NCBI GenBank assembly: GCA_016748015.1
Contig: JAAOMT010000710.1
Location: 1 to 64,000 of the forward strand
Origin: Geosiphon pyriformis uo1
Lineage: Eukaryota > Fungi > Glomeromycota
Length of the DNA stretch: 64,000 bases
Direction: 5' to 3'
A program made the translations under genes and the position numbers. The notes beneath the pieces were generated by a model. The model ran no database searches, was not told the DNA's origin, and was given only the letters and a program-made list of their open reading frames with translations. How positions within the stretch are numbered: the stretch's first letter is position 1; each line of letters starts with the position of its first letter. Shown piece by piece: positions 1 to 54,427 of the stretch.

Positions 1-123
1 TACCCTTCTCCCCTTTTTTTCCTCTTGGATGATTTTATCATTCAATAGCAAAAAATTTTCCCTCCTTCCGAAACGTTTGAAACAACTGGTTGTTCCCGAG
101 TGTATCAAACCACCTGCCACAGC

Positions 124-2127
124 ATGGCAGAAGAAGAGTCACAAGTAAGCGTAGTTCCGTCAATCCTGGATGTCCCATTAAGGGATGGAACAAATGCGAC
201 AAATGCTTCATTCAGGAGGGTTCCGCATTCCCGATCATCTTCTACTTCCTCTGCAGCTTCAATTCATGGCTTAGAGGATTCGTTTGAATTTATTGGGTCT
301 GACTCTCGAGACTTAAATAACATAGATTTGCACATCAATGGAAATTCACAAGGTAAATATATATATTCTCTGAATACTGCTAGTCACATAATCAAAATAA
401 TTTCTTTTTACTGACACTTCTCGATATGAAAAGAAGGTGAATATGCTGATGCATATAGTTCGTCTCCTTCAGAAAATGAAGAAGATGGTCAAAATTTTCC
501 CGACGAAGAAGATGTCATAAATCCATCCCAAAGACTGGCAAAGCTTCGCAATACCAAACGTCAGCCATTTTCCACCCCTACCAATTTTCGTGTACTGTAT
601 GTTGGTTCGCCCCCAAATGAGCAGTTGAAACAGACGCTGTTTCACAAATTTGCCGAAGCCCTTTCTAGCATTTTTTGGGAAGAGGCTAACAGCAATCTTC
701 AAAGCAGTGACATTGGTCCGGAAAAAAAGAGCAATCTCTTACCTATAAGTAATTATCAAGAAGCTAGACTTGAATATTACCATGATTCTGGGGTCGCCAT
801 TAGCGAAGCAGATTTTACTAATCGCCCTTACGAGGAAGTTCTGACCTATCTTCAAAATCAATTCCAGAAAAAAGAGAACGACGATGATCTGATTGACTTA
901 TGCATTTTTTTTATTCCCACCGACATCATAATTTTAAGCCGTGACATTCTACCTTTCATGAAAAAGTTACAAGGAAAAGTTACCCTTTTCCCGCTAATCG
1001 CATCAATAAATGACCTAAATGTTTCTGGAATTTACTTCAGAAATGAATGTGAAGAACAACGGCGTTCTATTGCTAAATTTTTTGAAGATAACGGAATAGA
1101 TATCTTCATCTGGAAAGAAGACGGTTTAGTTCACGACCGCAATGCAAAAGGGGAACAGATATCTGGCTGGGTTGAAACAATGTATACTAAAAAGATTCTA
1201 GCTGTTGAAGAATTTGCCAGCTGGGAAGCATCAAAAATATTTGAAGATATGCAACTATTGCGAGAACGCTCTTTAGAAATCAGGAAGGATCGGCAGCATG
1301 ATGAAATGGTGAAGAAGAGAGCCCAGAACTTCGAAAGATTTGTTGAGATTCTCAGGACAATAACCATAATGTTAACCATTTTATATACTTTCTATCTGGT
1401 TGTATTTGGAGTATGGAGTTACGCTGAGTGGTCAGTGATTCCTTCAGACTTGAGGGAGTCGTTAGAAGTTGTATCCAGTGCTACCTCCAGGATGCAGGCA
1501 CAAAATATACCCTTTGATACGGCTAATTATGATGATGCAGTGCGATTTGAAGTTACCCAATTATCACCGCGACGTTTCGTTATTGACACATATCCGAAAC
1601 GTCGCAGTGAGTCATATGAGGTCATTGTAAAACATAATCCTCAGATTTTGCGCCAATACGAAGCTAAAGATATGGGAAATGGTATCTATGAATTTGAAAT
1701 TGACCCTACTGGGGCCCAAGGGGATGTTATAGTTGAAATCAGAGATAAACTTGGGGAGATGATAAAGACTATCCAATGGTCTCCAAATAATATTGGGCAT
1801 GTCGCCAAAAAAGGTGCCGAAAATCCGGCTATAAAACAAGAGGCCGAGCAGGGCAAAGAGTTTAGAGGTTATTCTACAATCGCCGTTCACAATATTAAAT
1901 TTTGGGCTTCACTTTTGGTGAACAAAGTTGAATCATTTTTTGAAGCGGTTGGTGAAAATCTTAGTTTTGTCGCCCATAAAGCAGCTTCATGGGCCAGCTC
2001 TACCAAAGAAGAAATTCAAGCGGGAATCCCTATTTTTTGGAACAAGGTAAAAGGTTGGGCAAAATACTTGAAAGATCGCATTAATGATGGTCGTCAAAAT
2101 ATAGTTGCTTATTTTGAAGAAGATTGA
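124..2127 (+). CDS. Two-exon gene: degenerate septin-like P-loop domain, one transmembrane helix and a C-terminal beta-rich domain
   Basis: ATG at 124. GTAAAT donor at 353, CTGAC branch near 411, and AG acceptor at 433 or 436 keeps frame with the 500-aa ORF 625-2127. FRVLYVGS...KQTL sits at the septin G1 position and DLCIFFI...DILPFMKKLQGKVTLFPLIA resembles the septin core (LYFI...DIEFMKRL..VNLIPVIAK). Hydrophobic ITIMLTILYTFYLVVFGVW. CpG retained and no stops. Confidence 0.75.
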
Positions 2128-2540: not shown

Positions 2541-2666
2541 TTTCCTGAGCTAACTTCAAAAAAGACTGATAACACCGTCACCATCACCCCTGCTACCAAG
2601 AAAGGCTACCTCTACGGGCGTGTCTCTAGTACAAAGCAAAAAGAGGATCTCGAGCGACAAAAGTAA
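2541..2666 (+). pseudogene. tnpA: IS607 TnpA serine recombinase remnant
   Basis: Frame starting at 2604 reads GYLYGRVSSTKQKEDLERQK*, the Y-x-R-V-S catalytic serine motif followed by QKxDLERQ. The rest of the domain is deleted. Not in the ORF track. Confidence 0.85.
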
Positions 2667-2689
2667 CTCCCCTTTCGATTTTCAACCTA

Positions 2690-4315
2690 GGAACTCAGCG
2701 ATATCGGGTCAGTTTTCAATTTCAAACGATCGGGACTTGAGACCCTATTGGAACGAAAAAGCGGAAGGGTATCAGAAATTGTGGCCACCTAGCGTGATAG
2801 ACTTTGGGAATTTGCCTTCGACCTCTTTCAATATACATTCTTCCTCCTTTCTGCAAGACTCAGGGTTCTCTTCGACAATACGACCTCCGACGAGCATGAA
2901 CTCTCACAAGACATTCTTCCCATCAACACAGTCTTTATCTGCCGCATGCAGAGAAGGAGAGCTGCCTGTTTTTGATGAGAGCGCCAGAATAGGCGAAAAG
3001 CGCAAAGGAAAAGCGGGAGCAGCTCGTCCCAAACGTCGGAAGAGGCAGGACACTCTCAACTGTACACTATTAATCAAGGTGTATCCGGGCCATTCTCAAA
3101 GGCAGCTCTTGAAGTGGTGGATAGGCTTGAGTTGACATCGCGACTTTCATACCAAAAATTTCTATATTGGTCAATCAAAACAGGTCTCAATCTACCAAAG
3201 ATAAACTTAAACTTTACACATATCTTTGGGCAGGAAAGGATGCTAATGAATACGAAGACAAGAAACTCCAAAAAGCCGCCACATGGGCGAGCGAAATGTT
3301 GTGTGTCTCGGAATGTTGTTTCGGGGATATCCATGGCAAAGCGCTCAAGAATATTATCGATAAGGCAATCGATGAAGCATTGATAGGGAAGAAGTAATTA
3401 AGCATAATACGAATCGACAAGGTCTATCTGTCATTTCGGTCTCGAAAAGATCTGCGACAAACAATGATAGATTTTTCGAAATCCACATGGAACCGTTTCT
3501 ATGTCACTCATCTCCATAATCCATCAATGCTTACTACGGATCGTTATAAGCCTACCATCGTTCTGGGTAATGAAAAGTGTGCTTTACGGCCTCTTCATTT
3601 CAAAAAAAAAAGAGGGATATATAAGGTGGCCCGGTTCCTCACAAGACAATTTCGGATGGCAAGCTCATTTAATATCGCAAAACTAACAAGTGGACGTTTG
3701 CTTGGGTTTACGAGACGCAAAAGCAGCTCTGCGAAACCCAAGCGGATGGCTCGGTTCATGCAATCCCCATTGGTCCTGCCGTCCGTACACCTTTTACATG
3801 TACTCTCCCACGGAAGGTGTAGGCAAGTTTAAACGTTCTATTGGATATATAGCTCGCATTTTAAGGTACTTGGATGATTTCATTTGCAAAAAGTATAAGT
3901 TATTAGTATCCTACTCAAAATGTAATAATAAAATGACCTGGCGACTCAATAAGGCGATTTTTCGGATGCGGCGAAAAGTTATACGTCTGCAAAGTGAATT
4001 CGATATCATTATCATCCCTCCTTTTAAAGTGTCGAGCATAGTGAATCGCAAGACAAGAAGGATTACACGAAAAACTGTCCGGAAAATGCTATGTTGGACT
4101 CATTATCGCTTTCGATAACATCTGATCACTAAGGCCGAGGAATTAGGGCCCGTATTATTATCCAGAACGAAGTTTGCACATACAAGACTTGTAGTCAATG
4201 TGGTAAAAATCCAAAGAATCGGAGGGTCTAAAAATTACAACTGTCGGAATTGTGAGATATAGATGAAAATGGGGGCTCGGGAGATCTTCCTTCGAGCATT
4301 GCTTGATGGAGCAGG
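2690..4315 (+). pseudogene. tnpB: Fanzor2/TnpB-like RNA-guided RuvC nuclease, frameshifted
   Basis: N-terminal DLRPYWNE...LWPP extension. HTH-like IKVYPGHSQRQLLKWWIG. RuvC-I IGPAVRTPFT at 3769 (DPGVRT with D>G). IIIPPF at the canonical RuvC-II site. RKMLCWTHYRFR. NEVCTYKTCSQCG..CRNC (alternative Glu plus Zn ribbon). RuvC-III DENGAREIFLR. Confidence 0.85.
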
Positions 4316-6647: not shown

Positions 6648-8530
6648 ATAGAATTGGAGGCTACTACAAATAGTGTTATATCTAAAAAAAAGCACCAAAA
6701 GGTGCTTTTTATAATCCTGCTAGTAGTTCTTTTTTTCAAAAGAAAAAAGTTGTCCTTGGTAATATTAAACATTCTGGTAATGAAAAGGATATTTTCTTGA
6801 GTAAATTTGGGCCTAGTAATAACATATATTTTGATGTGGATAGTCTGTTTGGTGATAATGAGAACATTGGCATGACTGGTGTGAATAATGGGTCTCTTTT
6901 GGGCTTAACTACTACTATACCCAAAACAAAAAGAGTTAACACTAGTGCTATTTTTGGTTCTCTACTTGGTTCTCTCAATTTTAGTATAGATAATAATAAA
7001 ATTGTTTTCTCTTTTTACTTGTCCATCTTTCTAGACAAGAAGTGAATTGACCCAAAAATCATTAAAACTTCAGTAGAAGTGTCAGTTAAAAAGTCTTTTG
7101 CTTTGGATATTAATCTTTTAACTTTAAAAAAAAATTCAGCAATGGCAAAAACTCAGTTCAATAGAAAATTATTTTCATTTGTTAATGGTTTTGGGGGGGT
7201 CACTGCTTCTTTAAAATTTGAAAGAATTATCTAATCTACTTTTACTTCAGAAAAAAGCATGGATGTAATTGCTTTATTGGCCAGAGAAAAGAGAATTAAT
7301 ATAAATAGTAATCTTAAGAAACAAAAAATAAAGTCAAATTAGACTGTAGTAATTAAAGAGATTTCCATGAACATGTCTAAAAATATGATTGTCATCACAA
7401 TATCTGAATTTGGAGAAATTAAGTTAATCAAAATTTAATTGATTGGAATGTGACAGAAGACTGTAATAGAATTTGCCAAATTAGATTAAGCTGTTCAATT
7501 GGCCTTAAAATGGTCATTCTTAATCGGAAAAAATTCTGTGCATATAGCCAAGACTGTGAAAAATCATAAAATTTGGGCATCTAGAGATCAGTTCAGAGCA
7601 TTTCTGTTTATCTTGCCAATAGGAACAACAGCACATGACCTTAAGATTTTTTTAGAAGAGACTGATGAGAAAACTTGTGTTATAAATAGATCTATAAAAA
7701 CTGGTAATAGAATTCATTGTGCTGTAATTGGTTTTGCCTCTGATGAGGATTTAGAGTCTGTCTTTCACATGGAGCCAATCTTCAAAAAAGTAAAACTCTC
7801 TTGGACTAGTTTGAATTTGGTTTATTGTGTAAAGTGTGGGCATTTTAAACATTCAGCTCTCAAATATAATGCATTAGATGTATTTGTGCTATCAATATCA
7901 AAAAAAAATTTCTATAAATGAGTTGCTTTTGAGAAAATTTACTTTTAGCTTGCCAAGTTGTATAAGAAAAAAAGTGTTTTAATTTCTTGCTTTGCTGCCT
8001 TTGGTGACAAATTTTGGGCCCAGATGGTCTCATTTGTTGGTTTTTTTGGTAGTATTTGCTTCGGTTTTGGTTTTGGTTCCCTTTTTTCTGGTATTTCAAA
8101 TTCAAGTGGTACCCTTTTTTTTATTTTTGCTGATAATACTTCCTTAAATACTTGTTTAGTCTCCTTAGAATGCTCTTTGGAACTTCTAACAGATCAGATT
8201 TCTGGTATTATGCACAAGCTCAGCAATTTGGAATTGATGTCTTAGGCTCCTTTTCCTTTTTCCTTAGTTTTAGCTACTCTAATAGCTACTAATTTGAATT
8301 TGGGTTCAACAATAATTTTGAACAGTCTTAAGCTAGTGCTTTTGCCTCCTTTTTTTATTGTCTCTGATGTCTTAGTTCTAGATCCAAGTAGTTTGAAAGT
8401 ACTAACTACTAAGATGGGCTTTTTAGAATCTAAGTTAGTGGCTTTTGATATCTCTGTTGGTTTAGTATTAGTGAAGTTAGATTAATTGTATGCTGAATTT
8501 GGTTTTCAAGTATCTTCTTTTTTCCAATGA
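6648..8530 (+). pseudogene. LINE A ORF1 (RRM-like domains, CCHC knuckle, coiled coil)
   Basis: CVKCGHFKHSALKY knuckle. Homologous to ORF 59110-60975. Many stops from transitions. Start appears mutated from ATG to ATA at 6648. Confidence 0.8.
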
Positions 8531-11500
8531 GTAATTTGATTTGAAAAGTTGTTATGTGTAATATTTATGGTATTAATGTGCTGGCTAAGCAAAAAGATGT
8601 TGTGCATTGGCATATAGACTTTGATAATATGATTTCAATTATCACAGAAACAAAATTGAGATCCAGTATTAAATTTTGGATTATAAACAAGTTTGAGGGG
8701 GTGCAGATTTTTTTTTCTGGTTTGGACAAAGGTTTTTTTGGTGCTGAGGTAGCCATTATTATGAACAATTCTTTGGCCCATTATGTTTCTAAAATTAAAG
8801 AAATGTCTGGTTAGATTATTTCAATATGGCTTTTTTTTAAGAGAAAGCTTTTAGTTGTGATTTTGGGTTTGTATATTAATGCCTCTGTTAAGACTAGATT
8901 TGGTCAAGCTTTGGAAATCAATTTTTTTATTGCAAAGGCTGTTAACTTTATCATTTTTGCAGTTTTGGGTGGAGATTTCAATGAAAATAAGTCTGGAAAA
9001 AGTGCAAGTTTCAAGTTCTGCTTGGATCTGGGTTTGGTCAATTTATTTGGTAGATATCTATTGGTTAATACTTTTACTTGAAGCAATTTGAGAGGTGTTA
9101 AGAAGGCCATTGATTATGTTTTTGTAAATGAAAGCTTGTTGTCTACAATAGCCAGTCATAGAATTGTCTTTGTTTCTAATTTCTTTAATATGGATCATAA
9201 AGCTGTTTTGGTTTTAGTTGGTTTGGGTGGTCTCTTGAATGTTTATCTTAACAGTGTTTATAAACAGGCCAATAGAAACAAATAGAAGTTCAAAATCAAG
9301 AATGCTGATGCTAATAAATGAGCACATTTTAAAGAGTGTTCATTAACAAAATTTTTGGAAAAATCATTTAATTTTGTTTGTGCAAAGGATAGTGAAAATT
9401 TGGATATTATGTGGAAGATTCTGAAGGATGTGGTAGTCAGCTCTGCTAATGAGGTGTTTTCTAGATTCTGGTTCAGTGATTTTGAATGTTTGAAAAATAA
9501 ACAATCATCAAAGTTTTTTAAACTGGAGCTGTTGGTGGCCAGGTTGGTAAAGAGTTTGAGTTTATTTTAGAGTTTGAATGCCAATTGTTTTGTTGATATA
9601 TAGTTTACTATTGATTATAAGAAAGCTTCTAAAGTGTGTACTATGCTTGATGATAGTGGGGGCATAGATGAAATTTTGCATTATTTGTTAAGGTTCAAGA
9701 AGAAATACCATAGGTCCAAGTATTGTGAATTGAGAATTGCCAGGGATGTTCTAATCAGAAAAGCAATAAACAAGTGCATGGAAAACTTTTGTTTTGATAA
9801 AAGATATATGATCAAGAGTGTTTTGGAATAGTCATTTTGAAAGGTGGTGCTTGACTATCTAATAGTAAATAATGAATTAATTTTGTTGTCAAGTAAGATT
9901 AAGTTCTTAGTCAATATTATTATAAAAAAGTAAACAAAAAAATAGGTGGTACTTGATTCTTTGTTTGTTCATTAATCTAATCAATATGCTCCTTTAGACT
10001 ATGTTAATAATGGTACATTCTTAAATGTTATGTATGTAATTGAGCCTGATGAGTTTTTCTGGATGGTCAAAAATTTGCCTAATGAAAAAGCTGCTGGCCT
10101 TTCTGGTATTTCTAATAAACTTTGGAAGCATAGAGATATCCAGATTTTAGATGATTTATTAGATATTCTTAATATATGCTTAGTATTAAATACAGTGCCT
10201 ACACAATAGAAACAAGCTTGGGTTTTTATGATACCAAAGCCATATAACTAAGAAGGAACTCTTATTAATACCAGACTAATAGTATTGATTGAGACAACCC
10301 AGAAGCTATTGTCTAAAATTCTGTTTGACAGGATATTTCTGGTCTGCAGTGAATTTGATGTCTTATATGGTAATAATTTTTTGGTTCTAAAAAATACATC
10401 CACTCAAACTCCGATTTTTGCTGTTGGTTCAATAATTGAAAATGCACTAGAAAAAAACAAGGAGCTTTAGTTGGTTCTTCAGAATATGCAAAAAGCTTAC
10501 AATTCAGTTGGATGGTTTTATTTGCAAAAAAGTTTGGCTAAAATCAAAATGTGTTTCTATTTTATAGTGTTTTTTAGAGACATATATAATAATTAGATTA
10601 ATTGGATGATGACTAATTTTGGGCTTACAAATGAGTATGCTGTTCATAACAGCTTAGATCAAAAAAAAGTTTTTTCACTACTAATGTGGAGGATTTTTTA
10701 TGATTCTTTGCTTTGTGAGGTCAAAAGACATGAACAATTGTGTAGTTATAGATTAAATTCAAAATTTTTCACAAAATCTGGTAAGATTAATCCCAAGAGT
10801 AGCAAGGAATTTTTTTTTGCAGCTGGGGCTTTTGTTGATAATACTATCTGAGTTAGAAACTACATGGTAGCTATACAGCACATTTTAAATATTGCAAGTG
10901 AGTTTTTTTTGATCAATAATATTTTAATTAACATGGACAAAATAGTTGTCATTCCTATTAATCAAGAAGCCAGAATAAATACACTTTTTATTAGTAAATC
11001 TAGTATCTCAATAGCTAAAAAGTGCAAATCCCATCAATATTTGAGGATTTTTTTCTTAACAGATGGCTTATCCAAGCTTAGCTTAGCCAAAGCTTATTCA
11101 GATATCAGGTTTTTCTCAAATATGATATTAAAAAAGGCCATTTTTGAGAAGCAGTTTTTGTACTTGGTTTCTGCTGTTTTGCAATCTATAATTAGCTATA
11201 AATTGTAATTCAGTTGTGTTTTAAAAAAAATATGTAAGAAGTGAGACAAAATGTTGAGAAAAAGATTAAAGCTCAAAGCCAATCTGCTCAAGGATTTTCT
11301 AAATGAGGCTTTGTATCATCCTAAATTGTATGGTCTGAGAACTTTTAAGCAAATGTTGGCTGAGAATCTGTTGATAGGTCTGGTTAATTTTGCCAATGCT
11401 AATAAAGTTTTCAGTAATTTGTTCATATATAGAGCCATAAACTTGCAGGCTGGTAGCTAAATGCCCTGATACCTTCTTAGTTTTCTAATCAAATTAATAA

Positions 11501-13215
11501 TTGATCCAATGAATTGTTTTTTGGCTGGTGCAACACATGTCTTTGTTTTGTGCAACTTGTCTTTGAGTGGTGATCTGCCTAATGTTTTTTGGGCTGGAAA
11601 TAAAATTGCAGTTCTGGATGTATTAGGCTTAGATTACTATTTAGATGTGGTGAAATCACTTAAAAAATATGGTATTGTATTTGTAAACCAGCTTCTGAAC
11701 CATTACAGCACATGTTTTACATGAAATATTTTTCACAGATGGAAAAAACTGGACTCTAAAGGCCCAGTTCCTGTCTGGTTTAATTTTTTGGTCAAGTTTG
11801 TTGGTAAAAGTGGTTTTTTATATAGTAAATGTTTGGCTTTTTAGTCTGTTCTTGCTGGTCTTTCTTGTGATTTTGGCTATATTTGCAAACATTTGCTGGA
11901 TCCTGGGCTAGATTCTGTAAATGTCTACACAGATGGCTCTGTCAAAGATTTGGGATCAGTTGGTGCTTGTAGAGGTGCTGTTGTCTATTTCCCAGATGTA
12001 AACACTAGTGTTGGAATTAGGGTAGATAAATTGCTTTTCTTGACTTTGATAGAGCTACAGATTATTGCTTTTGCTTTGAAATGTGTACCTATTTCTAAGT
12101 TAGTTATCTTGTTTATGAACAGTCAAGCTTTATTGGGTATGTGCTGCTCTTATGATAGTGTGTCTGGTTCTGATTTTTGTAATAAATATTGGATCAAAAA
12201 AGAATATATTTGTCAAATCATTTTAAGAAAAAATTTGTCAATTACTTGAAAAAAGGTCAAGGGCCATTTTGGCAATATTAAAAATAAATGTGCCAATTTC
12301 TATGCTGATGCTGTAATTGATTCCAAATCCTTTTTGCCTTTTGTGATTCTATGTTATTTTCTTAATGTTAAAGGCAGACTCATTTCTGAGAATGCTTGTT
12401 ACTTTGCTAGAACTTTATTTAATGCAGTTAATTTTGTTGAGTGGGAAGCTAGATATATTGGTGGTATCATAAATATAAGCTTTAGTGGTAATTTTGATAT
12501 GTTTAAAGCCTTTAGTGTTTGGCATTCAGATGGCAAGATGCAATTTAACTATATCCGTTCAGCATTGGCAATGCCTTGGTCATATTTTATAAAGGCACTG
12601 CACCATCATTTGTCAATAGCTATAAGAAAAAAGAAGTATAATTTGAGATATCCAAGTGTTGCTTGCATTAGATGTGAATTGGTAGAAAACTCTAATTACA
12701 TATTCTCTTGTAATTATGACTGCAATGTTAAGAAAAGAATTTTATCAGATGCAGCTCTGAAATGAAAAGTTTTGTTGGATGACTCTGCTAAAAGGAGTGT
12801 GGTCTCTTAGTCTTTGGATAAGACTGTATTATTTATTGATTTGTATATAATGTTAGCTAAAGGATTTGTTTTGAAAAGTTAGGTGGCTGATACAGTACAT
12901 CATTTGGGAACTAATTTTGGAGGTGTTATGATGATTGTTAAGTTGGTCTGTTGTCTTACTAAGAATTACAGATCTTCTATTTGGTTGCTTGTGGCCAAGT
13001 TAAGATCCTACTATGAAAAACACAACTTTTTGCCACATGACAAGTATTTTGTTTTTTTGGTGTCCAGTTTGTTGTCTTTGTGGTCTTCTCAAATGGTTCG
13101 TGATTTTGGAGTTAGGTTAAATGTTTATGTCTGCTTTGGTTTGCATTTTTGTTTGTTCAGATTGAACTTTGGTTTTTTGAATAATGTTTCTATAATAGGT
13201 GTTTTGGATGTGTAA
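8527..13215 (+). pseudogene. LINE A ORF2: APE endonuclease, RT, RNase H, C-terminal Cys motif
   Basis: CNIYGIN, ITETKL, GGDFNE, IDYVF and DHKAV (APE). AFVDNT (YADD region). VYTDGS...KVKGH (RNase H). CIRCELVENSNYIFSC. Confidence 0.9.
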
Positions 13216-13689
13216 TATTGTCTTGACTAATCCAAGTGATTAATCATGTGTAAAAAAAACATGAGCCACACTTAATTTAGAATCTGTTTTGATTTTATGT
13301 ACTTAGATAGTGATTGGACTGTACTTATAAAACTTTTAATAAAAAAAAATTTATGATTTTTTTTAAATATATTTTTTATTATTAAATCTATTATAAAAAT
13401 TAAAATCAAATTAAAATACTTTTTAAAATAAAAAAATTATTATCAAAAAAACATTAAATATGTTATAAGTCAAAAAAGCTTTTTCTAAGCAATATTAATA
13501 AAAATAATTCATTTAGTTTTAATTAAAACTTTTTTTTGCTTATATAACTTGAAAATTATAAATACTTAATTCACAGATTAGATATTACCTGGTTCAAATG
13601 ATCAACAAATAATAATCAAATTTAGTAATTATACTTATTATAATTTTTTTTTTCATTTTTAAATGTTCTGTCTTTTTTAACATTTGTCA

Positions 13690-15222: not shown

Positions 15223-16068
15223 TATTATGAGTAATTATTTGGGGTGTTGAATCAAATAACAAACCTGTAACTTGGTGCTAAAAGTTATTTGTGTTGATGT
15301 AATTAATCTGAAGGTTTTGTATCTGAAGGTTTTAGGTTGAGTTCTTTGTATAATAGACAGAGATTCAATAGTTGTTTTATCCATAGCTTCCCAGAATCAC
15401 AATTCTGTTAATTCTTCTCTCGGCATGATGGCCAGCAATCCTCTGGTAAGTATTTTGTATCTTCTGTATGTGTTCTACCCTCTTGCAGGAGTCTTTTACC
15501 AGACAATCCTTAATGTCAGTAATCTAGCACTTTATTCAACCAATTAGTACACAACAATAAAATCAAAATAAAATAAAGAAAAAAAATAAAAGAAAATCAT
15601 AAATAAGCCAAGACAATTTTGCAAGTCAGTATCTTATCAATAGCCATGATCAAGAGCTATTGTTCCAGTGTGTTTAAGTATCAATTACTATTAACATGGA
15701 GTGTTGATAGTGGAATTAGGTTTGAGATACCAAATAATTATTTATTGTATTTGGAAGATTGTCTAAATGAAATCTAAACTTAGAAGTCTGTCTTTTTCAG
15801 CTTTTAATACTACTGCTATATATACATAATTGAGATTTCTCAATTTTTCAATTCTTCACAACAGAAATCCTGGAATTCCTGGAATCCTGCAATTCCTTTG
15901 AGAGGAATCCTGGAATTCTGGAATCCTGCAATTTCTCGTGAGAATCCTGTAATTCCTGAAATTCTGCAATTCTTGAAAAGAATCCTGGAATTCCACATTT
16001 TACTATGTCTACTTTTGATTGGCTAATAACTATGCTAATATATATTCCCTATATTTCTATGAGTAACA
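15223..16068 (-). repeat. 3' LTR of element 1 (846 bp)
   Basis: T(A/G)TTA...GTAACA termini. Matches 24513-25248. Carries a GAATCCTG(G/C)AATT tandem array at about 15863-15995. Confidence 0.95.
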
Positions 16069-16083
16069 TTATTCCCTTCTTTT
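16069..16083 (-). promoter_or_regulatory. Polypurine tract of element 1
   Basis: AAAAGAAGGGAATAA on the minus strand abuts the 3' LTR. Confidence 0.85.
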
Positions 16084-16741
16084 AATATTGAGCTCCGTTG
16101 AAATCTAACTCTGTTAATTCTTTTTTTTGAAGTATTTCCTGAATTTCATTTTCGAAAATTACTTGTGTTATTTAAGTCTGTAATTCTTCAAATTGAGTGT
16201 TGATGATCTTTCCTAATTGATTACTGATAACCATGTCTATTGCTTTGTTGAGTAAGATTTCTGATCAATCCTGAAATGCTGTGTGTATTCAGTATATGGC
16301 TTGGGTCTGTGTGGATAAGTTGTTTTTTCCCACAAAATGTTCTAATTGTTGTAATATTCTGGTGTCGAATAATCACTTTGTTTTATCCGTATATAGATTC
16401 TGGATATTCACATGTTGTCCCAAGTAAAAATAACAATAGTTTCTTGGAAATTGTTGTATCCACCAATTCCAAGTTTCTTTAGTCAACTTTTGGTATAGTG
16501 ATTCTTTTGTCGACTCTTTTATTGCTAATTTTACTTTCACCATGATTTTGTCAATGGTATTTTCTGTTTTCTTCTGTGTTTTATGTGATGATGTCTTTCT
16601 AGTGTCTTGATATCAGATGGTTTGTTAATTAATTGTAATTTCCATCTCTTGGTGTTGAATCAATTGAAAGAGTTGTTGTGCTAGTGAGTGGATGTTGTCT
16701 GTAATTTCTATTTTTCTAATATTTCTTGTTGCATCTATCAT
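16082..16741 (-). pseudogene. Element 1 ORF3 (about 219 codons, unknown helical protein), homologous to 36072-36779
   Basis: One frame with only CGA/CAA-type stops: MIDATRNIRKIEITDNIHSLAQQLFQL...YCYFYLGQHV...AIY*IHTAF...LGKIINTQFEELQT*ITQVI...LDFNGAQY*. Confidence 0.8.
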
Positions 16742-18138
16742 GTCTTTATATATTCTTTTAATGAATTAATTAACATGTTGTTGTCAATAATGATAATTGG
16801 TTCCAGATCTCATGGAATCTCCTCTAGTTGGACTAGTATCTTCTGTACTCCTAATTGTGGAATATTACTGGTGGATGGTGGTGTGATGTTGTGGTATGAT
16901 TTCAGTCAATCTCTATGTGCTGCTTTGGTTAAAATTTTGTTATCTAGTCTTAATTTGTAAGCTCCATTTCCTAGAATTTCTTCTATGTGAAATGGTCCAT
17001 CCCATTTGGGGTCGAATTTTCTACTTCATTGTTTTTCCGCTTTAATATGATGTAAAAGTACTTTGTCTCTAATCTTGAATTCAATTGGTTTGTCTGGTAG
17101 TTGATTATCATGTCTTTCTTTTTGTTTTTCTTGTGACTTTTGTATGTTATTAGCTGCTCTTCTTTGTTTGTTTTCCAATGTTTTCATTAAGTCATATGTT
17201 CTTCTTAACAATGTCTCTTGGAAATTCTCTTTTATTATTGGTTTAATTAGATATGTGTTAACCTTTATCTCAACTGGTAATGTTGCTGTTCTATCATATA
17301 TCAATTCAAATAGTGTTGCTTGTGCAGTGTCTTGCTTCATTGTCTGATAAGCAAATAATACTGATGCTATGAACAAATCCTATTCATCCTGGTTTTTTTG
17401 GCTGAGTTTTGCTATTGCTTCACACAATGTTCTATTAACTAATCTATTGGTTTGTGGATAGTATAGTAATGATAGTGGTCTCTTAATTCCAAATTTTTGG
17501 CTTAGTTCTGCTAATGTTATATTCACAAAATGGGTTCCTTGGTCTGATAATAGTTCTTTTGGACATCTATGTTGACAAATCAGATCTTGATGGACGAATT
17601 TGACAATGGATTCTGCATCTGCTCTTTGAATTGCTTTGGCTTCTGGCTATTTAGTAAGATAGTCCATGGCTACTGCAATATATCTGTTGCCTCTGCTGGT
17701 AATTGTCAATGGTCTGACTAAATCAATTCCAATGCAGTCAAATGGTTGTCCCACTTTGATTGGTCTCAATGGTTCACTGGGTCTTGTTCCTCCTCTTTTT
17801 TAACAAGTATTACAATTTTGCATATATTGAATGATGTCTGAATACATTGATGACCAATAGTAGCTCTTTTTGGTTCTTTCTATGGTTGCTTCTTTATGAA
17901 AATGTCCTGCAGCTGAATCTGAGTGCATGTTGAACAGTATTGTTTCTTTTTCTAGTTCTGTAATTACTCTAATTGGTTGATCTGAATCTTTTCTATTTTT
18001 CCAATAAAGTATATTTTGGTGAGTGATAAAATATTTGGATTGTTGTTTAATTCTCTTTTGTTCTGGTTGAGATAATTTCTCCTTGAACTGTTGAGTATCT
18101 ATATAATGTTGAAGTTGTTGATATTTTTGTGTGTTCAT
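16738..18138 (-). pseudogene. Element 1 integrase, apparently a separate ORF
   Basis: MNTQKY start. HHCC (MHSDSAAGHF...CNTC). IGIDLV and SDQG core motifs. C-terminal WDGPF (GPY/F). No chromodomain. Confidence 0.88.
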
Positions 18139-18199
18139 TTTTTGTTATATTTTCGTGAGTATTGTTTTGGTTTTGTTATATTTTTGGGTTGAAATGTTT

Positions 18200-21100
18200 T
18201 TAGATTTGTCTTATTCATGACAAACCATCAGCATTTCCATTGTCTTTTCCCTTTTTATAATGTATGATATAAGTATATGACAAAAGTGCCATTTTCCATC
18301 TTGACTGTCTGTCATCTCCAAATTCTTGTTTCTGGAGTGATGTCAGTCCTTTGTGATTTGTATACACCTTAAACTTCTGGCTTAAGTATTTTTTCCATTT
18401 TATGACTGCCCAATAGATTGCTAGATGTTCTAATTCTGGTGTTCCATAATTCTTTTCAGCTAGAATCAAACCTCAGCTGGCATATGCAATTGGATGTTCT
18501 CTTCTATCCAATCCTCTCTGAGATAGTACTGCTCCCAATGCTTGACCTGATGCATTAGTGGTGATAATAAATGGTTTACTATGATCTGAATAGATCAATA
18601 CTGGAGCTTGAATAAGCTTTCTTAAGATATTAAATGCTTTTTGCTGGGTTTCAGTCCATTCATACTTTGTATTTTTGGTTTGAAGATTATTGAGTGGTTG
18701 TACTATCTTTGAAAAGTTCTTTATGAAGTGTTTATAATAGCTTGCAAATCCCAAGAATAATTTCAGCTCGGTTACATTGGTTGGTATTGGAAAGTTCTTT
18801 ACTATCTCTATTTTTTCCGGATCTGTTTTTATGCCATCTTTGCTAACTATGTGTTCCAAGAATTTTAGTTCTGTTTTGCCAAAACACTTTTTTGCATTTA
18901 ATTTTAATTCTGCTCATTATAGTCTTTTGAACACTTGTTGGAAATAACATAGATGATTATTGAATGTTTTTGAGAACACATTAATGTCATTTAAGTATAT
19001 AACTACTGATTTCCACAATAAACTGGTATACACAATTTCCATTAGCCATTGGAATGTAGCTAGAGCATTGGTTAAGCCGAATGGCATAACTTCAAACTCA
19101 AAGTTTCCCTCTCTTGTGGTGAATGCCGTTTTTTCTTTGTCAGCTGGATTTATGACTATTTGCCAGTACCCACTATCTAAATCTAATGTTGAGAACCATT
19201 TGTTTCCATTAAAAGTGTCAAATAGTTCTTGTATCCATGAAGTTGGATAGCTGTTTCCACAAATTACACCATTGAGTTTCCTGTAGTCTACACAAAATTG
19301 GATTTTTCCATTCTTTTTACAGACAAGTACTACTGGTAACAACCATGGGCTCATTGATGGCTGAATTAACCCATTGTTAAGCATTTAGTTGATCTCTTGA
19401 TGAATGATTTCATGGCTGGCTGGTGGTATCCTATATGCTTGCTGTTTGATTGGCATTGTATCTCCAGTTTTGATCTAATGCTGAATAATATTAGTTCTGC
19501 CAAATTTGTTTTCATTGGTGAAGATGTCATTGAAATTATTGAGTAACATCTTTAGTTGCATCTGTTAAAGTGAGTCTAGATTTTCCATGTTTATCTGTTC
19601 TAATTGTTCTGACTGTAATAGATAACATTTGTTTCATCCATAGATGGTTTGTGATGTAATGTCCACATATTTACAAAGCTGTGGAAAATCTGGAATGCTG
19701 CTTGGTGCTTGATCTTCAATTTCCATGGTTAAATATCTGAGAGTAGTTTTTTTTGGTATTTCTACAACATTTCCAGTGTTGTTGTAGATGGGAATTTTGA
19801 TATGATTATGATTCTTGGCTGGTATGTGTAGATTGATAAGTCCAATTTCTCTTGATTCACAAAGGGTTGCTTCTGCTTCAAGAATCTGTTCTTGCTTCTT
19901 CTCTCTTTTTTCTATTGCTAACATGTATTGGCTATATGGTAGAATGGAAATTGTTTGACTGGTTGAAATAATTTTTTCTTGGCCAATAATTTTTTCTTCC
20001 ACTATATTAACTGATACATCTATTCTACCTGTAGATCCAAATTCCTGTATTCCTTTTGCTGTTATCCCTAATTCTTCTTTGTTTCTCACTGACACTAATT
20101 GAGCTACTTTAACCAGAGGCAGAAATATTGCCTGTGCTATTTTTTTATTTGGCTCTATAATATAGGTCTTTTTTGAGTTATTTTGTAGCATGGCAATGAT
20201 ATTTCCTACATATTTTGTGTCAATTATTCCTCCTTTTATATTTATCCTTCTTTTCACTAGACTACTCCTAGATGCTAATTGAATCATTGTTGTTGCCGGA
20301 ATTTTCAGTGCTATTTTCAAATCAATGCAGGTGTGTGGATGTGGTTCCAATTGGATGGCCTCTTTTCCTGGATACCTTAAATCAAACCTGGCATTAGTAT
20401 CATGCATGTGTTCTGGCATAATATCTTCATTATTATTGCTAAATCATTTAAGTTCCAGTTCCTTGATGAGGTCAGGAAGTGCAATATATTGTTCATAGTC
20501 TGGATTAGAGTTTAAATCTGAATTGGAATTGTTGTCATTGTTATTGCCATATTGAATAGAGCTGGAACCAGTGTTTTCATCGTCATCATTATTGGAGTTT
20601 GAATCAGGATTAAAAATCAATTCCAATTCTGATGCACAGCTGCTGATTGGTTCTTCTTTTTCTGGGATTGTGTAGATTATGTGTGGTGGTAGATTGTAAA
20701 TGAGGTCACACTCATTACAATATTGGAAGTTACATGGAATCAAACAGTGGTCACATAGTCGAGTGTTTATTTCTTCCAACCATTGCTCTTGTTCTTCTCG
20801 AGTAGGTGCCAACCATTGATAATGCTTGTAGAATTCTTCTGGATTGTTCTCAATGTTGCCAAATATATCAAACGTTAGGACGTATTCAGATTCAAGCAGA
20901 GATAGGGGGTTGTTTTTGATTTCTAGTAGTTCACTGGTTGTCACACCTTCTGCCTTTGCATTCATCATTCTCCAGAGTTTATGTTTGTTGTGTGAATATC
21001 TTTCCAATCATCATAATGTTTGTTTCCAGGCATCATCAATTGGTGTTCTCTTGCATACCCAATCATTGATTAGTATCATATACTGGCAGGTTTCATCACA

Positions 21101-24100
21101 TGTTCCTCCTCTCCCAGGAATGTTATTCCACATTCCTTCGTTGAGAAGAGTTTCCCCACATGCTAAACATAGTGTATTATCCCATTTTCCTACTCGTTTT
21201 GGTCTTTCAAAGTGTTCGACAAGGTATGCATGACAATAGAACTTAGTTGCCATCTGGTATTCTTTGTTATCGCCACAGCAGACACTCATTAATGACAATT
21301 TTTTGCCTCAATCGATGCATATAAGCTTTGGTCGGCGATAGCTCAATAATTGTGGTGGTATATATGTATAAAGAGTGTAACTGGCAGTTGGTAGTGGCTT
21401 CTCTTCCTTCATTTTTCCTTTCTCTTTTTTTCTCTTATCCCATCCCCAAATTGGTGGTTCTTCTAAGTCATGGTTGGTGTCCTAGACTTGATCTGCATTC
21501 CAGGTAGGTTCTGTTCTCTTTTGTTTTTCTTTGCCATTGTCATTTTATGAGAGTATTGGCAGTAGCTCGTTGTGTTTTTCGTCAGTCCATGAGACTTGAT
21601 ACGCTTTCCAGGTAGGTTTTGGTTTTTCTTCTTTGAGGTTAATTAGTGGTGCTGTGGTGTTGGTAGCTTTAAAGTGACCACACGTTGCTGGTACTTGCGT
21701 GTGTTGACTATTCTGGCTGAGTACTAATTCTTGAGTCATCCAATTGAGCACAGTGTTAGTTTTGGATAGCCAGTTATTATCAACTAACACTTGATATTGG
21801 GTGGCTTTTATCACCAGAACTTTAATGGGTACTACGATGCCATTGACTTCAATTAGGAAGTCATCAATTTCACCAATTGGAGTTTTGGTGGCTCTATCTA
21901 CAGTGATAATCCTGGTGCTGGCAGCACAATCAACTTGGTGACCTAATTGATCCATGAGTTGTTGTGTGATGATGCTGTCTGCTGAACCACTGTCAAGAAT
22001 TAATTTGATGAAGTGGCCATCAACCTTGGCATCAATGTACATAGCCATGATTGGTTTCTCTTCAAATGCTGCTCCACTGAATAATGGCGTATCTGATGAT
22101 TTCTCAAGTTTGAATAGGAAGATGGCATCCAAAAATTCATTTTTGGTGATTGTAGCAGGTGGAATATTATTGGTAGGTGGTTGTTGTTGTTTGATTCTCT
22201 GATTGCTGGAGGTGGTATCTTCTGGAGTCATCAAAAAACTTAAATAGTGTTGAGAATTCGGGTTTTAGGTGGGATCGGTGCCCAAATTCTACTAACAAGA
22301 TCTTGATTGTTGGTGAGAAGAGCTGGAAATTGGTTGATGTACAACCATCACCGATCTCCAGTTTTGGATGATTCTCAATCTTGGGTTTCTTGATGTCATT
22401 TGAATTGGATTTGCTGGTGGTGTTTGAATGGTGGGTGTTTGATAGATTGCTGGTGGCTGTGGTTGATATATTATTTATGGCTGCACCTGATAAATTGCTT
22501 GTGGCAGTGGTTGATAAACTGGAGTTTAATAAACTGGCAGTTGATAAATTGGTTGGTACATCATAGGCAGATAAGTGGGTTGGTATTGGTCTTAATTCAG
22601 GTGATGGTTCAGAGTTTGAAACTGGCAATCGGGGTTTCTATATTAATTTCCTGGTCATAGATTGCTATAAGTATGGCAGTTGGCTCTGATGTGTTCTTGT
22701 TTATCACAGTTGTGGCAGACATGCATCTCTGGCTGCCATAACTGATTGGATGATGATGATAGATGTGACTGATTTTGGAAACGATTTGCATTTCCCTGAT
22801 TGTTATGCCATTGAGAAGATTGATAAATTGTGTGATTGTCAGCTAAGTATTCCTCTAATTTCTGATTAATTGAATCACTGAATTGCTTCAATTTAGAATC
22901 CAATTCAGATGATCCATTCATTGCTAGATTCACAGCTTGAGCATGATTAGCTTCTAGTTCAGCTGCTTCAAAATCTTTGGCGTATGTGACTGTGGTTGGA
23001 AGATTTACTGGGTACATTGGACGTACTTGTTGTAGGATGCTACTGCACAATTCTCTAATAAATTGATTTAAAATCTGTGGTGCTGTGAAATAGTCAGCTT
23101 GGATGGCTTGTATTTGGTGTAGATTTCTATGGAAGCATCCCAAATAGGTAGTGACTGCTTCAGTGTCTCCTTGTTTGATAGTTGTAAAGATATTGGCTAA
23201 TTTGTTAATACTATTATTGTTGTTAAAGTACTGCAAGAATTCAGTTTTGAATTCATTAAAATTTTGGGGTTTGACAGCAAGGCTTTAATATCATGCATCA
23301 GTAGTATCCTAGAGAAAATAAGGGATTGTTTGCATTGCTCTAGCATTATTTCAATTATCGACTGTAATGGCTTTGGCCATGTCATTTAACCAGACTTGGG
23401 CATAATTTTCTTTACCATTGAATTTGTCAAGTTTTACGATAGATGCATAAGCCATTTGTTGTTGCTGTGATGGTAGAAGTTGTTGTTGTTGTTGGGATGG
23501 TACTGGTGGCAGTTGTTGATTTTGTTGGTTCAGTGGTTGGATGGGCTGGCCAATTGGTTCAATGGGTGGTTGATTGATGATGATAACTGGAGATAAGTAT
23601 TGATTAATTACTTCAGAGTTTGGATTGTTCTGATTTGGTGGGGTTTGAATATTCAGAGTGTTATTTTCTGAATTGTTTAAATTGGGCTGGATTTGAAAGT
23701 TTGGGGTTTTAATTTCCGGGTTTTTTAGGATCGGGTTTTGGTAAGTAAATTCTTAATCCTTAAATTCTTCTTCCTCTTCTACTTTTTGTTCTCCTTCCAA
23801 TTCAGTAATTTCCTAAGAACTCACAATTCTGAAATTTGGTTGAGGTGGTGGTGATCAAAATCCTGATGGCATCAGTGATCAAGATTTAAATTCTTCAAAA
23901 TACTTGCCATATGGTCCTAGTAGATCCTCTTTCTTTTGTTTATTTTGGAATAGAAAACGTCCAAATGCTGATGTCACATTTGATGTGGATGCATCTGTTG
24001 ATAATATATTGATGGCACTTCTAAGAATATAGTGGTAGGATGGGTTGTTTAGGAACTTAACTCTAGTTTTCTTCCAAGTAAGTGGTTGTATCTTTTGAGA

Positions 24101-24451
24101 TGTTACTGCTGGTGTTTGTAGTTTTCCTTTGTCTTTACTTGTATAAGTAATTGGGTATCTTTGTTGTGTGTGGTGTTCAATTTCTTTGTTAATCTCAGTA
24201 ATAATGGATGCAAAATTATAATTTGTGGATAGGCTGGTGTTTTGAATTAATTCATTGTAAAAAGTTTCTCTTACTGATTCAATATTCATAGATGTTTCCA
24301 ACAGATAGACAATCCTTTCATTGACATAGAAATTGAAAGCTGATTTTGCTGATATGTAATTATGGATTAATCCCAAATGTTGACAGTAATGTTGAAATAA
24401 GAATTTCGCGAATCTTAGATGGTTTGCTTCAATGTTTTCTGATTCTGCCAC
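18200..24451 (-). pseudogene. Element 1 Gag-Pol: extended Gag, CCHC, protease, Cys-rich domain, dUTPase, RT, RNase H
   Basis: All fragments from 23879 to 18215 share one frame. Motifs: CHNCDKQEHIRANC, LILDSGS, dUTPase, FCVDYRKLN, MPFGL, YLND, TNASG, ADGLS. Confidence 0.92.
20020..20419 (-). other. dut: dUTPase domain of element 1
   Basis: ARFDL (motif I), ASRSSL (II), GGIIDTKYVG (III), KIAQAI (IV), KGIQEFGSTG (V). Confidence 0.9.
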
Positions 24452-24494
24452 TTTTGGATGAGGTTATTGGTGCTGGTTCTTTGTAGGATTATAT

Positions 24495-24510
24495 CTCACA
24501 GGAAGCACTA
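24495..24510 (-). promoter_or_regulatory. Primer-binding site of element 1
   Basis: T(A/G)GTGCTTCCTGTGAG 2 nt inside the 5' LTR. Its complement CTCAC.GGAAGCAC(C)A resembles a tRNA 3' end, possibly Ile-UAU; identity unverified. Confidence 0.75.
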
Positions 24511-24512
24511 AA

Positions 24513-25248
24513 TGTTACGAGTAATTATTTGGGGTGTTGAATCAAATAACAAACCTGTAACTTGGTGCTAAAAGTTATTTGCATTAATGTTATTAATCTG
24601 AAGGTTTTGTATCTGAAGGTTTCGGGTTGAGTTCTTTGTATAATAGACAGAGATTCAATAATTGTTTTATCTGTAGCTTCCCAGAATTGCAATTCTGTCA
24701 ATTTTTCTCTTGGCATGATGGCTGGCAATCCTCTGGTAAGTATTCTGTATCTTCTGTACATGTCCTACCCTCTCACAGGGGTCTTTTACCAGGCAATCCT
24801 TGATGTCAATAATCTAGCGCTTTATTTAACCAATTAGTGCACAACAATAAAATCAAAATAAAATAAAGAAAAGAAAAGAAATAAAAAAAAATTATAAATA
24901 AGCCAAGGCGATTTTGCAAGTTAGTATTTCATTAATAGCCATGATCAAAAGCTATTGTTCTAGCATGTTTAAATATCAATTACTATTAACATAGAGTGTT
25001 GATAGTGGAATTAGGTTTGAGATACCAAATAGTTATTTATTGTGTTTGAAAAGTTGTCTAGATGAAATCTAAACTTAGAGATCTGCCTTTTTTAGTTTCT
25101 AATACTACTGCTATATATACATAATTGAGATTCCTCAATTTCTCAATTCTTTACAACAGGAATCTTGGAATTCCACATTTTACTATGTCTACTTCTGATT
25201 GGCTAATAACTATGCTAATATATATTCCCTATATTTCTATGAGTAACA
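24513..25248 (-). repeat. 5' LTR of element 1 (736 bp)
   Basis: TGTTAC...GTAACA termini. Lacks most of the tandem array found in the 3' LTR. Confidence 0.95.
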
Positions 25249-35118: not shown

Positions 35119-36091
35119 TGTTACTGGAGGTTTTTGGTCTTTTTTCTTGAATGTTGTAAATATTTGTTGGTTGCAAATTCACATTTTCTAGAAGTAGTTG
35201 AATCTCCAATAACTGAATTTATCTTCAAATTATCTTCTATAATTTGAACTTGCTGGGCTTATAAGTAGAATGGCCAATTCCTTGCCAGTTACTTTATGTA
35301 GTTACATTGTAGTAAATGTCAACTCTTTCTCAGAAATTGCTCATCTGAAAGCTCACTAAAAATGTGTAGTTACTTTGCTGTAAAAGTCAACTCTTCTACA
35401 GAAATCTCGTCTGTAGGCTACCCTAATGATTATAATAAGAAAATAAAAAAAAAGTAAAAAAAAAGTAAAAAAAATTGAATTCTGTCAAGAGAAACATTTT
35501 CTATCCAGGCCTGGAGTCACTAACAGTTTACTGAAATTGGTAGCTAATCAATTTCAAAATGTTAATTGGGTTTTGAAGATTTTCCAAGTACAATAATTAA
35601 AGAATTTGGTTTTTTAAATTATTTGATATTTATTTCTTTTTTTGTGTGTAGGAATGGTTTTAAGTGATAAATCTAAAGTAAAATACATTTTCTTGAAGAG
35701 AAAAGCTCTTCTTTTATACAACTTGTTGTAGTACTAGTCTATGGACTTGCACTTTTTCTCTTTGCTCAAATTTCGGCAAACTAAAGATACATTTTAATGA
35801 ACTACAAGTTATTTTGCTGAACTATTGATTAATTTGGATGAACTATTCATAATTTCGGCGAATTTCTTATAAATTTCGGCGAATTTTAGAATGTTACAAA
35901 GTTCAGGGTATTGTGTAATTTGATCATTCTACTTTCTGTCATACTAATTGGATTATTTAATTAAATTGTGATATGTGATAATTGATTAAATAATAAGTGA
36001 TAATTTGAAATGATATTAATATACTAATTAATTTATAGAAATTATAAGGGTAATTTCATGCTAATTGATAGCTAAAATTCTACTGGTAACA
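35119..36091 (-). repeat. 3' LTR of element 2
   Basis: TGTTAC...GTAACA termini. Matches 44041-44981. Confidence 0.95.
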
Positions 36092-36779
36092 TAATCTCTT
36101 CCTTAAGACTGAGCTCCATCAAAGTCCAAGCACTATCTGTGATATTGAGATAGTGATCCAAAATAATTGAAGTAATCTGGTCTGAAAATTGTTGAAATTT
36201 CAGTTCTGTGAGTTTGCAAATGTATTGGATTTTTATTGGTTGCAATATTGGATTTTGTAGAACATTTTCACAAGTATTAAACAAATCATAAAGTCTAAAA
36301 GCTGCTCTAAGTTTGTAGTAAGTGTTTGTTGGTCCAGCTGCTGTTTTAAATTTATTGTGAATTTGTTTTTGTATAGCTTTAGGAGTAAGATTTGTTGCTT
36401 CAAGTTCCAGTTTTTGTTCATAAAGTGTCTTTCCAATGTGAAAGTATTTATAGATAGGAGTGTGTTCATTGTTCTGTTCATTAAAAAGTAGTAAAAGTTT
36501 TTGTTGTATTGTAGCATTCAGTGAAATATCAATAGGGGCAATTAAAAGATTTTTTTCCAATGCTTGCTTTAAAAGTCTTGGTAACTTATTTTCAGAGTGA
36601 CTTCTTGTTTTTCTTCTATAGGAGTGATAGTTCTGTGGATGATTTACTACTGGGGCTGTGGTTTTTTTCTGAATGTAATTAATTTGACTTTTATTAATTG
36701 TTATGGATAAGTCAGGAAGTGTTTTCAAGGCTAACATTAACTTTTGGAATATTTGTTGAATATTTTGGGGAATAATCAT
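36072..36779 (-). CDS. Element 2 ORF3, unknown function (ancestral stop probably at 36103)
   Basis: 235-aa open frame between integrase and PPT. Homologous to element 1 ORF3. An alternative frame ends LDFDGAQS*, matching LDFNGAQY*. Confidence 0.8.
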   Translation of the reverse strand: MIIPQNIQQIFQKLMLALKTLPDLSITINKSQINYIQKKTTAPVVNHPQNYHSYRRKTRSHSENKLPRLLKQALEKNLLIAPIDISLNATIQQKLLLLFNEQNNEHTPIYKYFHIGKTLYEQKLELEATNLTPKAIQKQIHNKFKTAAGPTNTYYKLRAAFRLYDLFNTCENVLQNPILQPIKIQYICKLTELKFQQFSDQITSIILDHYLNITDSAWTLMELSLKEEIMLPVEF

Positions 36780-36960
36780 GGTAAAATTAACTAATTATGA
36801 AAAAGAAGAATAAAGAAAATTATTTTTGGGTATGGGGTTTTTGTTTTTTTTTTTGGTTTGGGTGTTTTTTTTTTTTTTTTTTTTGTGTAATTATTTACTA
36901 TTTTTGTCTTTGTGTTTTTTTATTAAAAAATTATTGTAAAATTTAAGTGTTCAAGTTTGG

Positions 36961-38327: not shown

Positions 38328-38384
38328 TGTTGTTTGGTTATTTTGTTGGTAGGTTGGTAAGTTATGGTGGAATTGTTGTTGGTA

Positions 38385-43995: not shown

Positions 43996-44040
43996 TTTGA
44001 ATTTGTTGTTGCTGTGTTATTTCCATGGGAAAGCACTAAA

Positions 44041-44981: not shown

Positions 44982-44998
44982 ACATAAAAAAAACATAT

Positions 44999-54290: not shown

Positions 54291-54427
54291 ATTTTTTTTT
54301 ATTAACACATTTAACAAGTATAGCCCAATCACTATCTAGTACATAGAGCCAAACTAAAAGGCTCAAACTAAACATGACTTATGCACTCTCTACATGTGGC
54401 TAGCCACTCAGGCCAAACAAGGCAATA

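Follow-up and report, generated by a model that had tools for sequence, protein, structure and literature searches.

Additional open reading frames (ORFs) lying between pol and the 3′ long terminal repeat (LTR) of retrotransposons have been recognised as a class, for most of which the function is open, and the role of those that do not resemble env is likewise an open question (PMC7264820). Here we describe such a reading frame, ORF3, in two Ty3/Gypsy elements located within a 64,000-nucleotide stretch of the genome of the fungus Geosiphon pyriformis uo1 (contig JAAOMT010000710.1; the whole stretch is referred to below as the window). ORF3 resembles the sense additional ORFs (aORF-3S) treated in that review in that it is located between pol and the 3′ LTR on the same strand, is conserved across copies and present in most copies of its family, is of unexplained origin and has a proposed accessory role. 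However, the aORF-3S covered in the sections of the review considered here come from plants and are mostly env-like, with transmembrane segments, whereas ORF3 is fungal, matches none of the families searched and is predicted to be soluble and helical (PMC7264820).

Other described systems share individual features with the window elements. Among fungal Ty3/Gypsy elements bearing a dUTPase, PosPlaTy3-5 of Postia placenta encodes this enzyme between protease and reverse transcriptase (RT), a placement that the window elements share together with the Gypsy order of domains, and a figure legend in the same paper marks an additional ORF without assigned function in some fungal elements (PMC2864245). 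The window elements differ from this group in that their integrase is encoded by an ORF of its own and gave no chromodomain match, while the additional ORFs are compared here through that legend only (PMC2864245). LTR retrotransposons of bdelloid rotifers also include dUTPase-encoding lineages with a captured, non-env third ORF, but the rotifer ORF3s, as presented in the part of that study considered here, are recognisable enzymes (GDSL esterase, DEDDy exonuclease), whereas the fungal ORF3 has no invariant catalytic residue (PMC5408684). A further analogy, restricted to how the protein may work, is with foamy-virus Tas (Bel-1), which binds U3 as well as sequences upstream of its own internal promoter (PMC3185757). 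Here too an accessory ORF lies before or into the 3′ LTR, and a 7-mer occurs at both places in L001, a metagenomic locus related to the window elements. On the other hand, no sequence or fold relationship between Tas/Bel-1 and ORF3 was found, and the ORF3 element has no env. No description of the ORF3 family was found in the literature, with most subscription journals, all supplements (e.g. PMC2864245 Additional file 1) and repeat libraries falling outside the scope of the search; ORF3 thus apparently represents a family of accessory proteins, belonging to a lineage of fungal Gypsy elements, that has not been described before.

The two elements that carry ORF3 and their relevant parts are as follows.

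15223 to 25248, minus strand: element 1, a full-length, decayed Ty3/Gypsy retrotransposon with the 4-bp target duplication TCAT
15223 to 16068, minus strand: 3′ LTR of element 1, about 90% identical to the 5′ LTR at 24513-25248
16069 to 16083, minus strand: polypurine tract (PPT) of element 1, adjoining the start of the 3′ LTR at 16068
16786 to 18138, minus strand: decayed integrase of element 1, which starts at an ATG of its own downstream of the RNase H stop
35119 to 44981, minus strand: element 2, a full-length, decayed Ty3/Gypsy retrotransposon with the 4-bp target duplication ATGT
35119 to 36091, minus strand: 3′ LTR of element 2, about 92% identical to the 5′ LTR at 44041-44981
36092 to 36104, minus strand: PPT of element 2, inside the ORF3 frame, with the 3′ LTR starting at 36091
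36780 to 36963, minus strand: element 2 spacer that separates integrase from ORF3, 2% G and free of ATG

Both elements have the features of Ty3/Gypsy retrotransposons, namely paired LTRs, a target duplication, a PPT (followed by TGTTAC) and the order gag, protease, RT, RNase H, integrase, and both are old. On the minus strand of element 1 the order is gag, protease, dUTPase, RT-RNase H, separate integrase and ORF3, the Pfam matches placing the dUTPase between protease and RT; element 2 has the same layout, its Pfam domains following one another in gag-to-integrase order. The integrase is a separate ORF, since in all three elements compared a TAA follows the end of RNase H (around 18203-18138 and 38387-38339 on the minus strand of the window, and 772-798 in L001), and is succeeded by a spacer rich in A and C and poor in G (0-2% G where measured) and then by the integrase's own start. 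Across the spacers between units the G content is 0-9%, compared with 14-16% in L001 coding DNA. The integrase ends about 30 residues beyond its SH3-like part, and no chromodomain was matched in the integrase C-terminal pieces scanned from L001 and both window elements, in keeping with its reported absence in a preliminary description of this DNA made from the sequence alone; the elements therefore do not group with the chromoviruses by this feature. Overall, these elements are built of three separately terminated units: Gag-Pol up to RNase H, integrase, and ORF3. With such an organization, ORF3 would presumably be translated from a subgenomic RNA, or else by ribosomes that restart beyond the G-poor spacer; a splice acceptor ahead of ORF3 was seen by eye in element 2 and was not evident in L001. 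At the other end of the elements, Gag has a long N-terminal extension ahead of its capsid domain (42613-44016 and 23879-24463, minus strand), for which the piece scanned from element 2 gave no Pfam match.

The two ORF3 copies of the window belong to different families, denoted A and B1 in our analysis.

16082 to 16741 (frame 16741-16082), minus strand: the family A copy of ORF3, carried by element 1, with 219 codons from ATG to TAA and its stop adjoining the PPT
36072 to 36779 (ORF 36779-36072), minus strand: ORF3 of element 2, family B1, open, 235 amino acids

The element 1 copy is interrupted by six internal stops (at 16627, 16615, 16375, 16291, 16267 and 16174). Relatives carry Gln or Arg at these sites, which fits C-to-T decay, and the copy is therefore dead. 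Several lines of evidence nevertheless establish that the two ORFs are homologous, as had been proposed, and that this homology is real at the level of protein. First, their local BLOSUM62 alignment scores 100, a value reached by none of 5000 shuffled controls (mean 38, sd 6.7, maximum 84), while the remaining 8 frame pairs of the two regions score 35-46. Second, the best DNA alignment between the regions spans only 33 bp. Third, a profile that drew on families B, F and G and left out family A matches the element 1 frame along its whole length (E 1.5e-13, profile positions 2-224). When run over all six frames of the window, this profile matched only the element 1 frame and element 2, and it detected no ORF3 remnants in LTRs or in other parts of the window. 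In a comparison of family profiles with hhalign, families A and B were related with a probability of 87% over 180 columns.

The C-termini require a different account. The preliminary description had ended the element 2 ORF at 36103 with LDFDGAQS and a stop, but 36779-36103 measures 677 nt, which is no whole number of codons, and the peptide belongs to another frame. ORF3 of element 2 instead passes through the PPT and ends 20 nt inside the 3′ LTR, as it likewise continues through the PPT into the LTR in the intact family B relatives shown; the notion that both stops abut the PPT thus holds for element 1 and not for element 2. Ahead of the PPT there is a DNA motif that is common to distant families and read in two frames (16069-16100 and 36092-36125 in the window, 3085-3125 in L001 and 1-35 in L002), and the C-terminal likeness of the two ORFs is explained by this conserved motif at the PPT junction. 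An 'LDF.GAQ' end as protein conservation between the window elements was accordingly rejected.

ORF3 is not restricted to this window. Searches with the element 2 protein returned 203 matches, and among the matches listed all 120 that were named come from Geosiphon pyriformis; the element 1 protein returned 101 matches, every one from this species. A profile search of 1.84 billion representatives yielded 115 matches, of which 20 were looked up (16 from G. pyriformis and 4 metagenomic), and a wider profile retained 61 of 2892 candidates, 55 of them from G. pyriformis. As far as sources were checked, no host-gene homologue or other cellular gene was found among the 115 matches. The most distant relatives (P0316, P0333, P0355, P0357 and P0320) lie on short metagenome contigs.

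We labelled nine ORF3 families, A-I, whose representatives are 11-44% identical to one another. In a 21-row tree, A, C, D and E stand apart from B, F, G, H and I, with the positions of H, I and G being uncertain owing to long branches. This division agrees with the way in which the gene ends, since ORF3 stops ahead of the PPT in A, D and E and reads through into the LTR in B, F and G. Genomic position was seen in the window elements and in L001 and was taken from gene models for A, B and D, while for C, E and F it was taken from C-termini or not seen. Gene models in families A, B and D fuse the SH3-like tail of integrase to ORF3, placing it after integrase; SH3_Tf2-1 was matched by 5 of 5 such fused models, all under its cut-off. 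In L001, which is much less decayed than the window elements, RNase H and its stop are followed by an integrase that has a single internal stop; a spacer of 316 nt then leads to an intact ORF3 of 230 amino acids, the PPT and an LTR. Its integrase and RT-RNase H are 50-60% identical to those of the window elements, compared with 26-27% for ORF3. ORF3 is a genuine third gene, with a stop of its own, in a Ty3/Gypsy lineage that lacks the chromodomain.

To assess selection on the protein we used 61 of the 64 full-length family B gene models, 3 having been dropped for gaps; these models are biased toward stop-free copies. Fixed differences between B1 and B2 fall on 12 of 106 core sites and on 14 of 27 linker sites, whereas changes private to single copies are spread more evenly, at 0.57 (core) and 0.93 (linker) per site (fixed versus private, core versus rest, Fisher p=0.011). 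The fixed changes are also more conservative than the private ones (mean BLOSUM +0.36 versus -0.46, p=0.003). Variants called from reads over 331 bp comprised 35 sites; 6 of 11 shared non-CpG variants were synonymous, with 34% expected, and so were 6 of the 12 variants private to the window copy. Judged from the B1/B2 comparison and the homology at the level of protein, it is supported that the ORF3 protein has been kept under selection, with the B1/B2 differences avoiding its core. Together with the lack of any membrane segment (the Kyte-Doolittle mean over 19 residues peaked at 0.3-1.3 in each of 10 proteins, which indicates neither a transmembrane nor a signal helix and argues against an env-like protein), this agrees with the preliminary view of ORF3 as a conserved, non-env accessory ORF.

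Structural modelling improved markedly with the alignment used. A first model had a predicted local distance difference test score (pLDDT) of 54, and a second, based on 38 diverse sequences, had a mean pLDDT of 80.3 and a predicted template modelling score of 0.65. In the latter, an N-terminal helix and beta-hairpin are followed by a disordered basic linker and a core (residues 81-200, pLDDT blocks of 86-96) with helices at 82-93, 100-119, 126-141 and 146-160, and then by short helices and a long C-terminal helix at 185-220. Conservation is strongest in an aromatic-x-x-[IL]G motif of helix 100-119, in a G-x-[TN]-N turn that precedes helix 146-160 and in basic residues of the latter helix. The core is thus predicted to be helical with a helix-turn-helix-like conserved turn. 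Fold searches with both models returned only background matches, with no helix-turn-helix structure above them; they covered the whole models and not the core alone, and for the model with pLDDT 80 the match list was filled by the long C-terminal helix. With all families aligned, not a single column is invariant, an observation that speaks against an enzyme.

Database comparisons gave few leads. Neither Pfam nor NCBIfam scans of ORF3 gave a match over cut-off, and the same was true of PHROGs (best E 0.001); PDB sequences gave no match at E 10, phage records gave none, and none of 509 candidates from viral contigs matched. The NCBIfam model FtsQ was discarded as a chance match (19.5 bits against a cut-off of 366). 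Weak similarity to DUF1016_N, the YhcG N-terminal domain (PF17761), was seen in 3 proteins (E 0.028-0.12; best 15 bits against a gathering cut-off of 32.8) and stays in register from the helix with Y-x-x-IG through the G-x-[TS]-x turn to the next helix. However, it was significant in no test and was seen mainly for family B: one-to-one hhalign gave p 0.006 and a probability of 6%, falling to 0.3% at full length, and membership was not established after a test with 43 fetched sequences. We treat this similarity, in register with the conserved turn, as a weak lead only. DUF3102/ParB-type helix-turn-helix domains and a widespread helical family of Glomeromycota are further possible resemblances.

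The basic linker offers a further clue. In six of the nine families (B, C, D, E, F and G; not A, H or I) it contains an R/K/H-x2-5-PY motif, with PY expected about 0.05 times per linker, in a region modelled at low confidence. In form it agrees with the C-terminal portion of nuclear localisation signals of the PY type (PMC2408616). PY is kept in only 35 of 64 family B proteins, and in the window element 2 copy the proline directly ahead of RRKTRSH has been lost; RRKTRSH, the basic patch pointed out earlier, is indeed present in element 2 but is confined to it and absent from element 1. The two most distant relatives that were inspected have acidic linkers without a PY motif.

Taken together, a nuclear role and nucleic-acid binding are plausible for ORF3, and of the three roles previously suggested for it (transactivator, silencing suppressor or integration tether) the first has the most circumstantial support. 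In the scheme that we tentatively favour, at a probability of roughly 0.38, ORF3 would enter the nucleus, bind repeats in the U3 of its own element through the helical core and raise transcription in the face of methylation silencing. Import would proceed via the PY-type signal in most families, the helix following the conserved turn may recognise DNA, the U3 repeats would be its targets, and the effect on LTR transcription would be activation rather than repression. Candidate sites for such a regulator are present in both 3′ LTRs.

15866 to 15993, minus strand: near-palindromic 13-bp motif in U3 of the element 1 3′ LTR, 7 copies, candidate regulator site
35769 to 35886, minus strand: different near-palindromic 15-bp motif in U3 of the element 2 3′ LTR, 3 copies, candidate regulator site

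Each LTR type has its own near-palindromic U3 motif, a third being found in a neighbouring LTR at about 45000-45880. The 5′ LTR of element 1 has a single copy of the 13-bp motif (25161-25173), and exact copies of the 15-bp motif number 2 versus 1 between the LTRs of element 2; the copy number of U3 motifs therefore changes within single insertions. The repeats exceed all 300 of 300 shuffles in the element 1 3′ LTR and in the neighbouring LTR. L001 has one 7-mer in 5 copies, with 0.35 expected and 0 of 200 shuffles reaching that number; 3 copies lie in U3, 2 just upstream of ORF3 and none in coding DNA. Outside U3, the neighbouring LTR (about 44998-45878, minus strand) and the LTR of element 1 share some 75% identity; the neighbouring LTR carries its different palindromic repeat at 45670-45805 and ends about 16 bp from the start of element 2.

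Several observations weigh against a transactivator acting through these sites. The repeats do not exceed all 300 shuffles in 5 of the 7 LTRs tested, including element 2, where the repeat count of the 15-bp motif is not over that of shuffles. The window elements lack a motif copy upstream of ORF3 such as that seen in L001, all of the U3 and upstream motifs were selected after inspection, and host factors could equally well be what binds the U3 motifs.

Among the alternatives, the one that fares best, though we consider it unlikely, is that ORF3 is an RNA-binding accessory factor which exports, packages or shields the element's RNA or blunts small-RNA silencing. An Atlas feature match of 0.92-0.93 to Closterovirus coat protein (PF01785) was recorded, but at low shared-feature counts: the Atlas matches have just 118-156 features in common out of 256, and their recognition stays below 2300. 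PF01785 is absent from the Pfam and fold rows shown, and the 25 Pfam families listed for 38 members do not include Closter_coat. A match to NS1 was at background level and was gone with the better model.

It is somewhat less probable that ORF3 counters host chromatin silencing without recognising any particular sequence in the LTR, its binding partner being, for instance, methylated DNA or a silencing protein of the host. The observed/expected CpG ratio is 0.18 in element 1, 0.14 in element 2 and 0.21 in L001, whereas the host gene region (49-2127) has a ratio of 0.81, and because the elements are so strongly CpG-depleted, methylation pressure must be high; the quick divergence of ORF3 between families would also fit a conflict with the host. 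However, ORF3 has neither a catalytic motif nor a residue invariant across families, and known enzymes went unmatched. Ranked next, and improbable as well, is a partnership with the separate integrase, in which ORF3 would either deliver the pre-integration complex to the nucleus or act as a chromatin tether in place of the chromodomain. The lack of a chromodomain match in the C-terminal pieces scanned, the encoding of integrase as a separate ORF directly upstream of ORF3 and the nuclear-import-like motif all speak for such a role, but the insertion sites of the two elements have no common target motif apart from AT-rich flanks, and the divergence of ORF3 relative to integrase and RT-RNase H appears too fast for a fixed protein interface. 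Finally, although ORF3 occupies the env position, where sense ORFs are often env-like (PMC7264820), an env-like entry protein is contradicted by the missing membrane anchor and by a helical, soluble model, and neither it nor a host gene captured and kept as a mere passenger fits the conservation across families, the selection on the core or the absence of cellular genes among those profile matches whose source was checked, leaving both very improbable.

A broader extension of the transactivator proposal, which we regard as unlikely, would see here a complex-retrovirus-like fungal LTR lineage of three units, in which ORF3 is a family-specific DNA-binding transactivator, possibly derived from a bacterial or phage helix-turn-helix domain, that co-evolves with palindromic LTR repeats and escapes methylation silencing, thereby helping to explain the LTR expansion in Geosiphon.

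The remainder of the window contains other features. The host gene at 49-2127 (plus strand), which is not CpG-depleted, shows a weak septin-like GTPase match (E 3e-4, under cut-off) together with a hydrophobic stretch and a domain at the C-terminus. Two decayed copies of another element lie in opposite orientation at 54300-61000 (minus strand) and 6700-13300 (plus strand) and are about 72% identical where aligned; they resemble a non-LTR (LINE-type) element. Frameshifted ORF fragments at 2554-4118 (plus strand) resemble an IS200/IS605-type TnpB/Fanzor gene.

These findings bear on how the G. pyriformis genome is read. LTR sequences make up 41.2% of it (PMC11952901), and hundreds of its 'hypothetical proteins' are ORF3 copies (the 203 and 101 matches above), which should therefore be annotated as transposon genes and should not count as fungal gene families. 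The transactivator idea is directly testable, since ORF3 is small, soluble and confidently modelled, intact natural copies exist and candidate DNA sites are at hand. If true, it would mean that an LTR retrotransposon encodes its own transcription factor, as complex retroviruses do.
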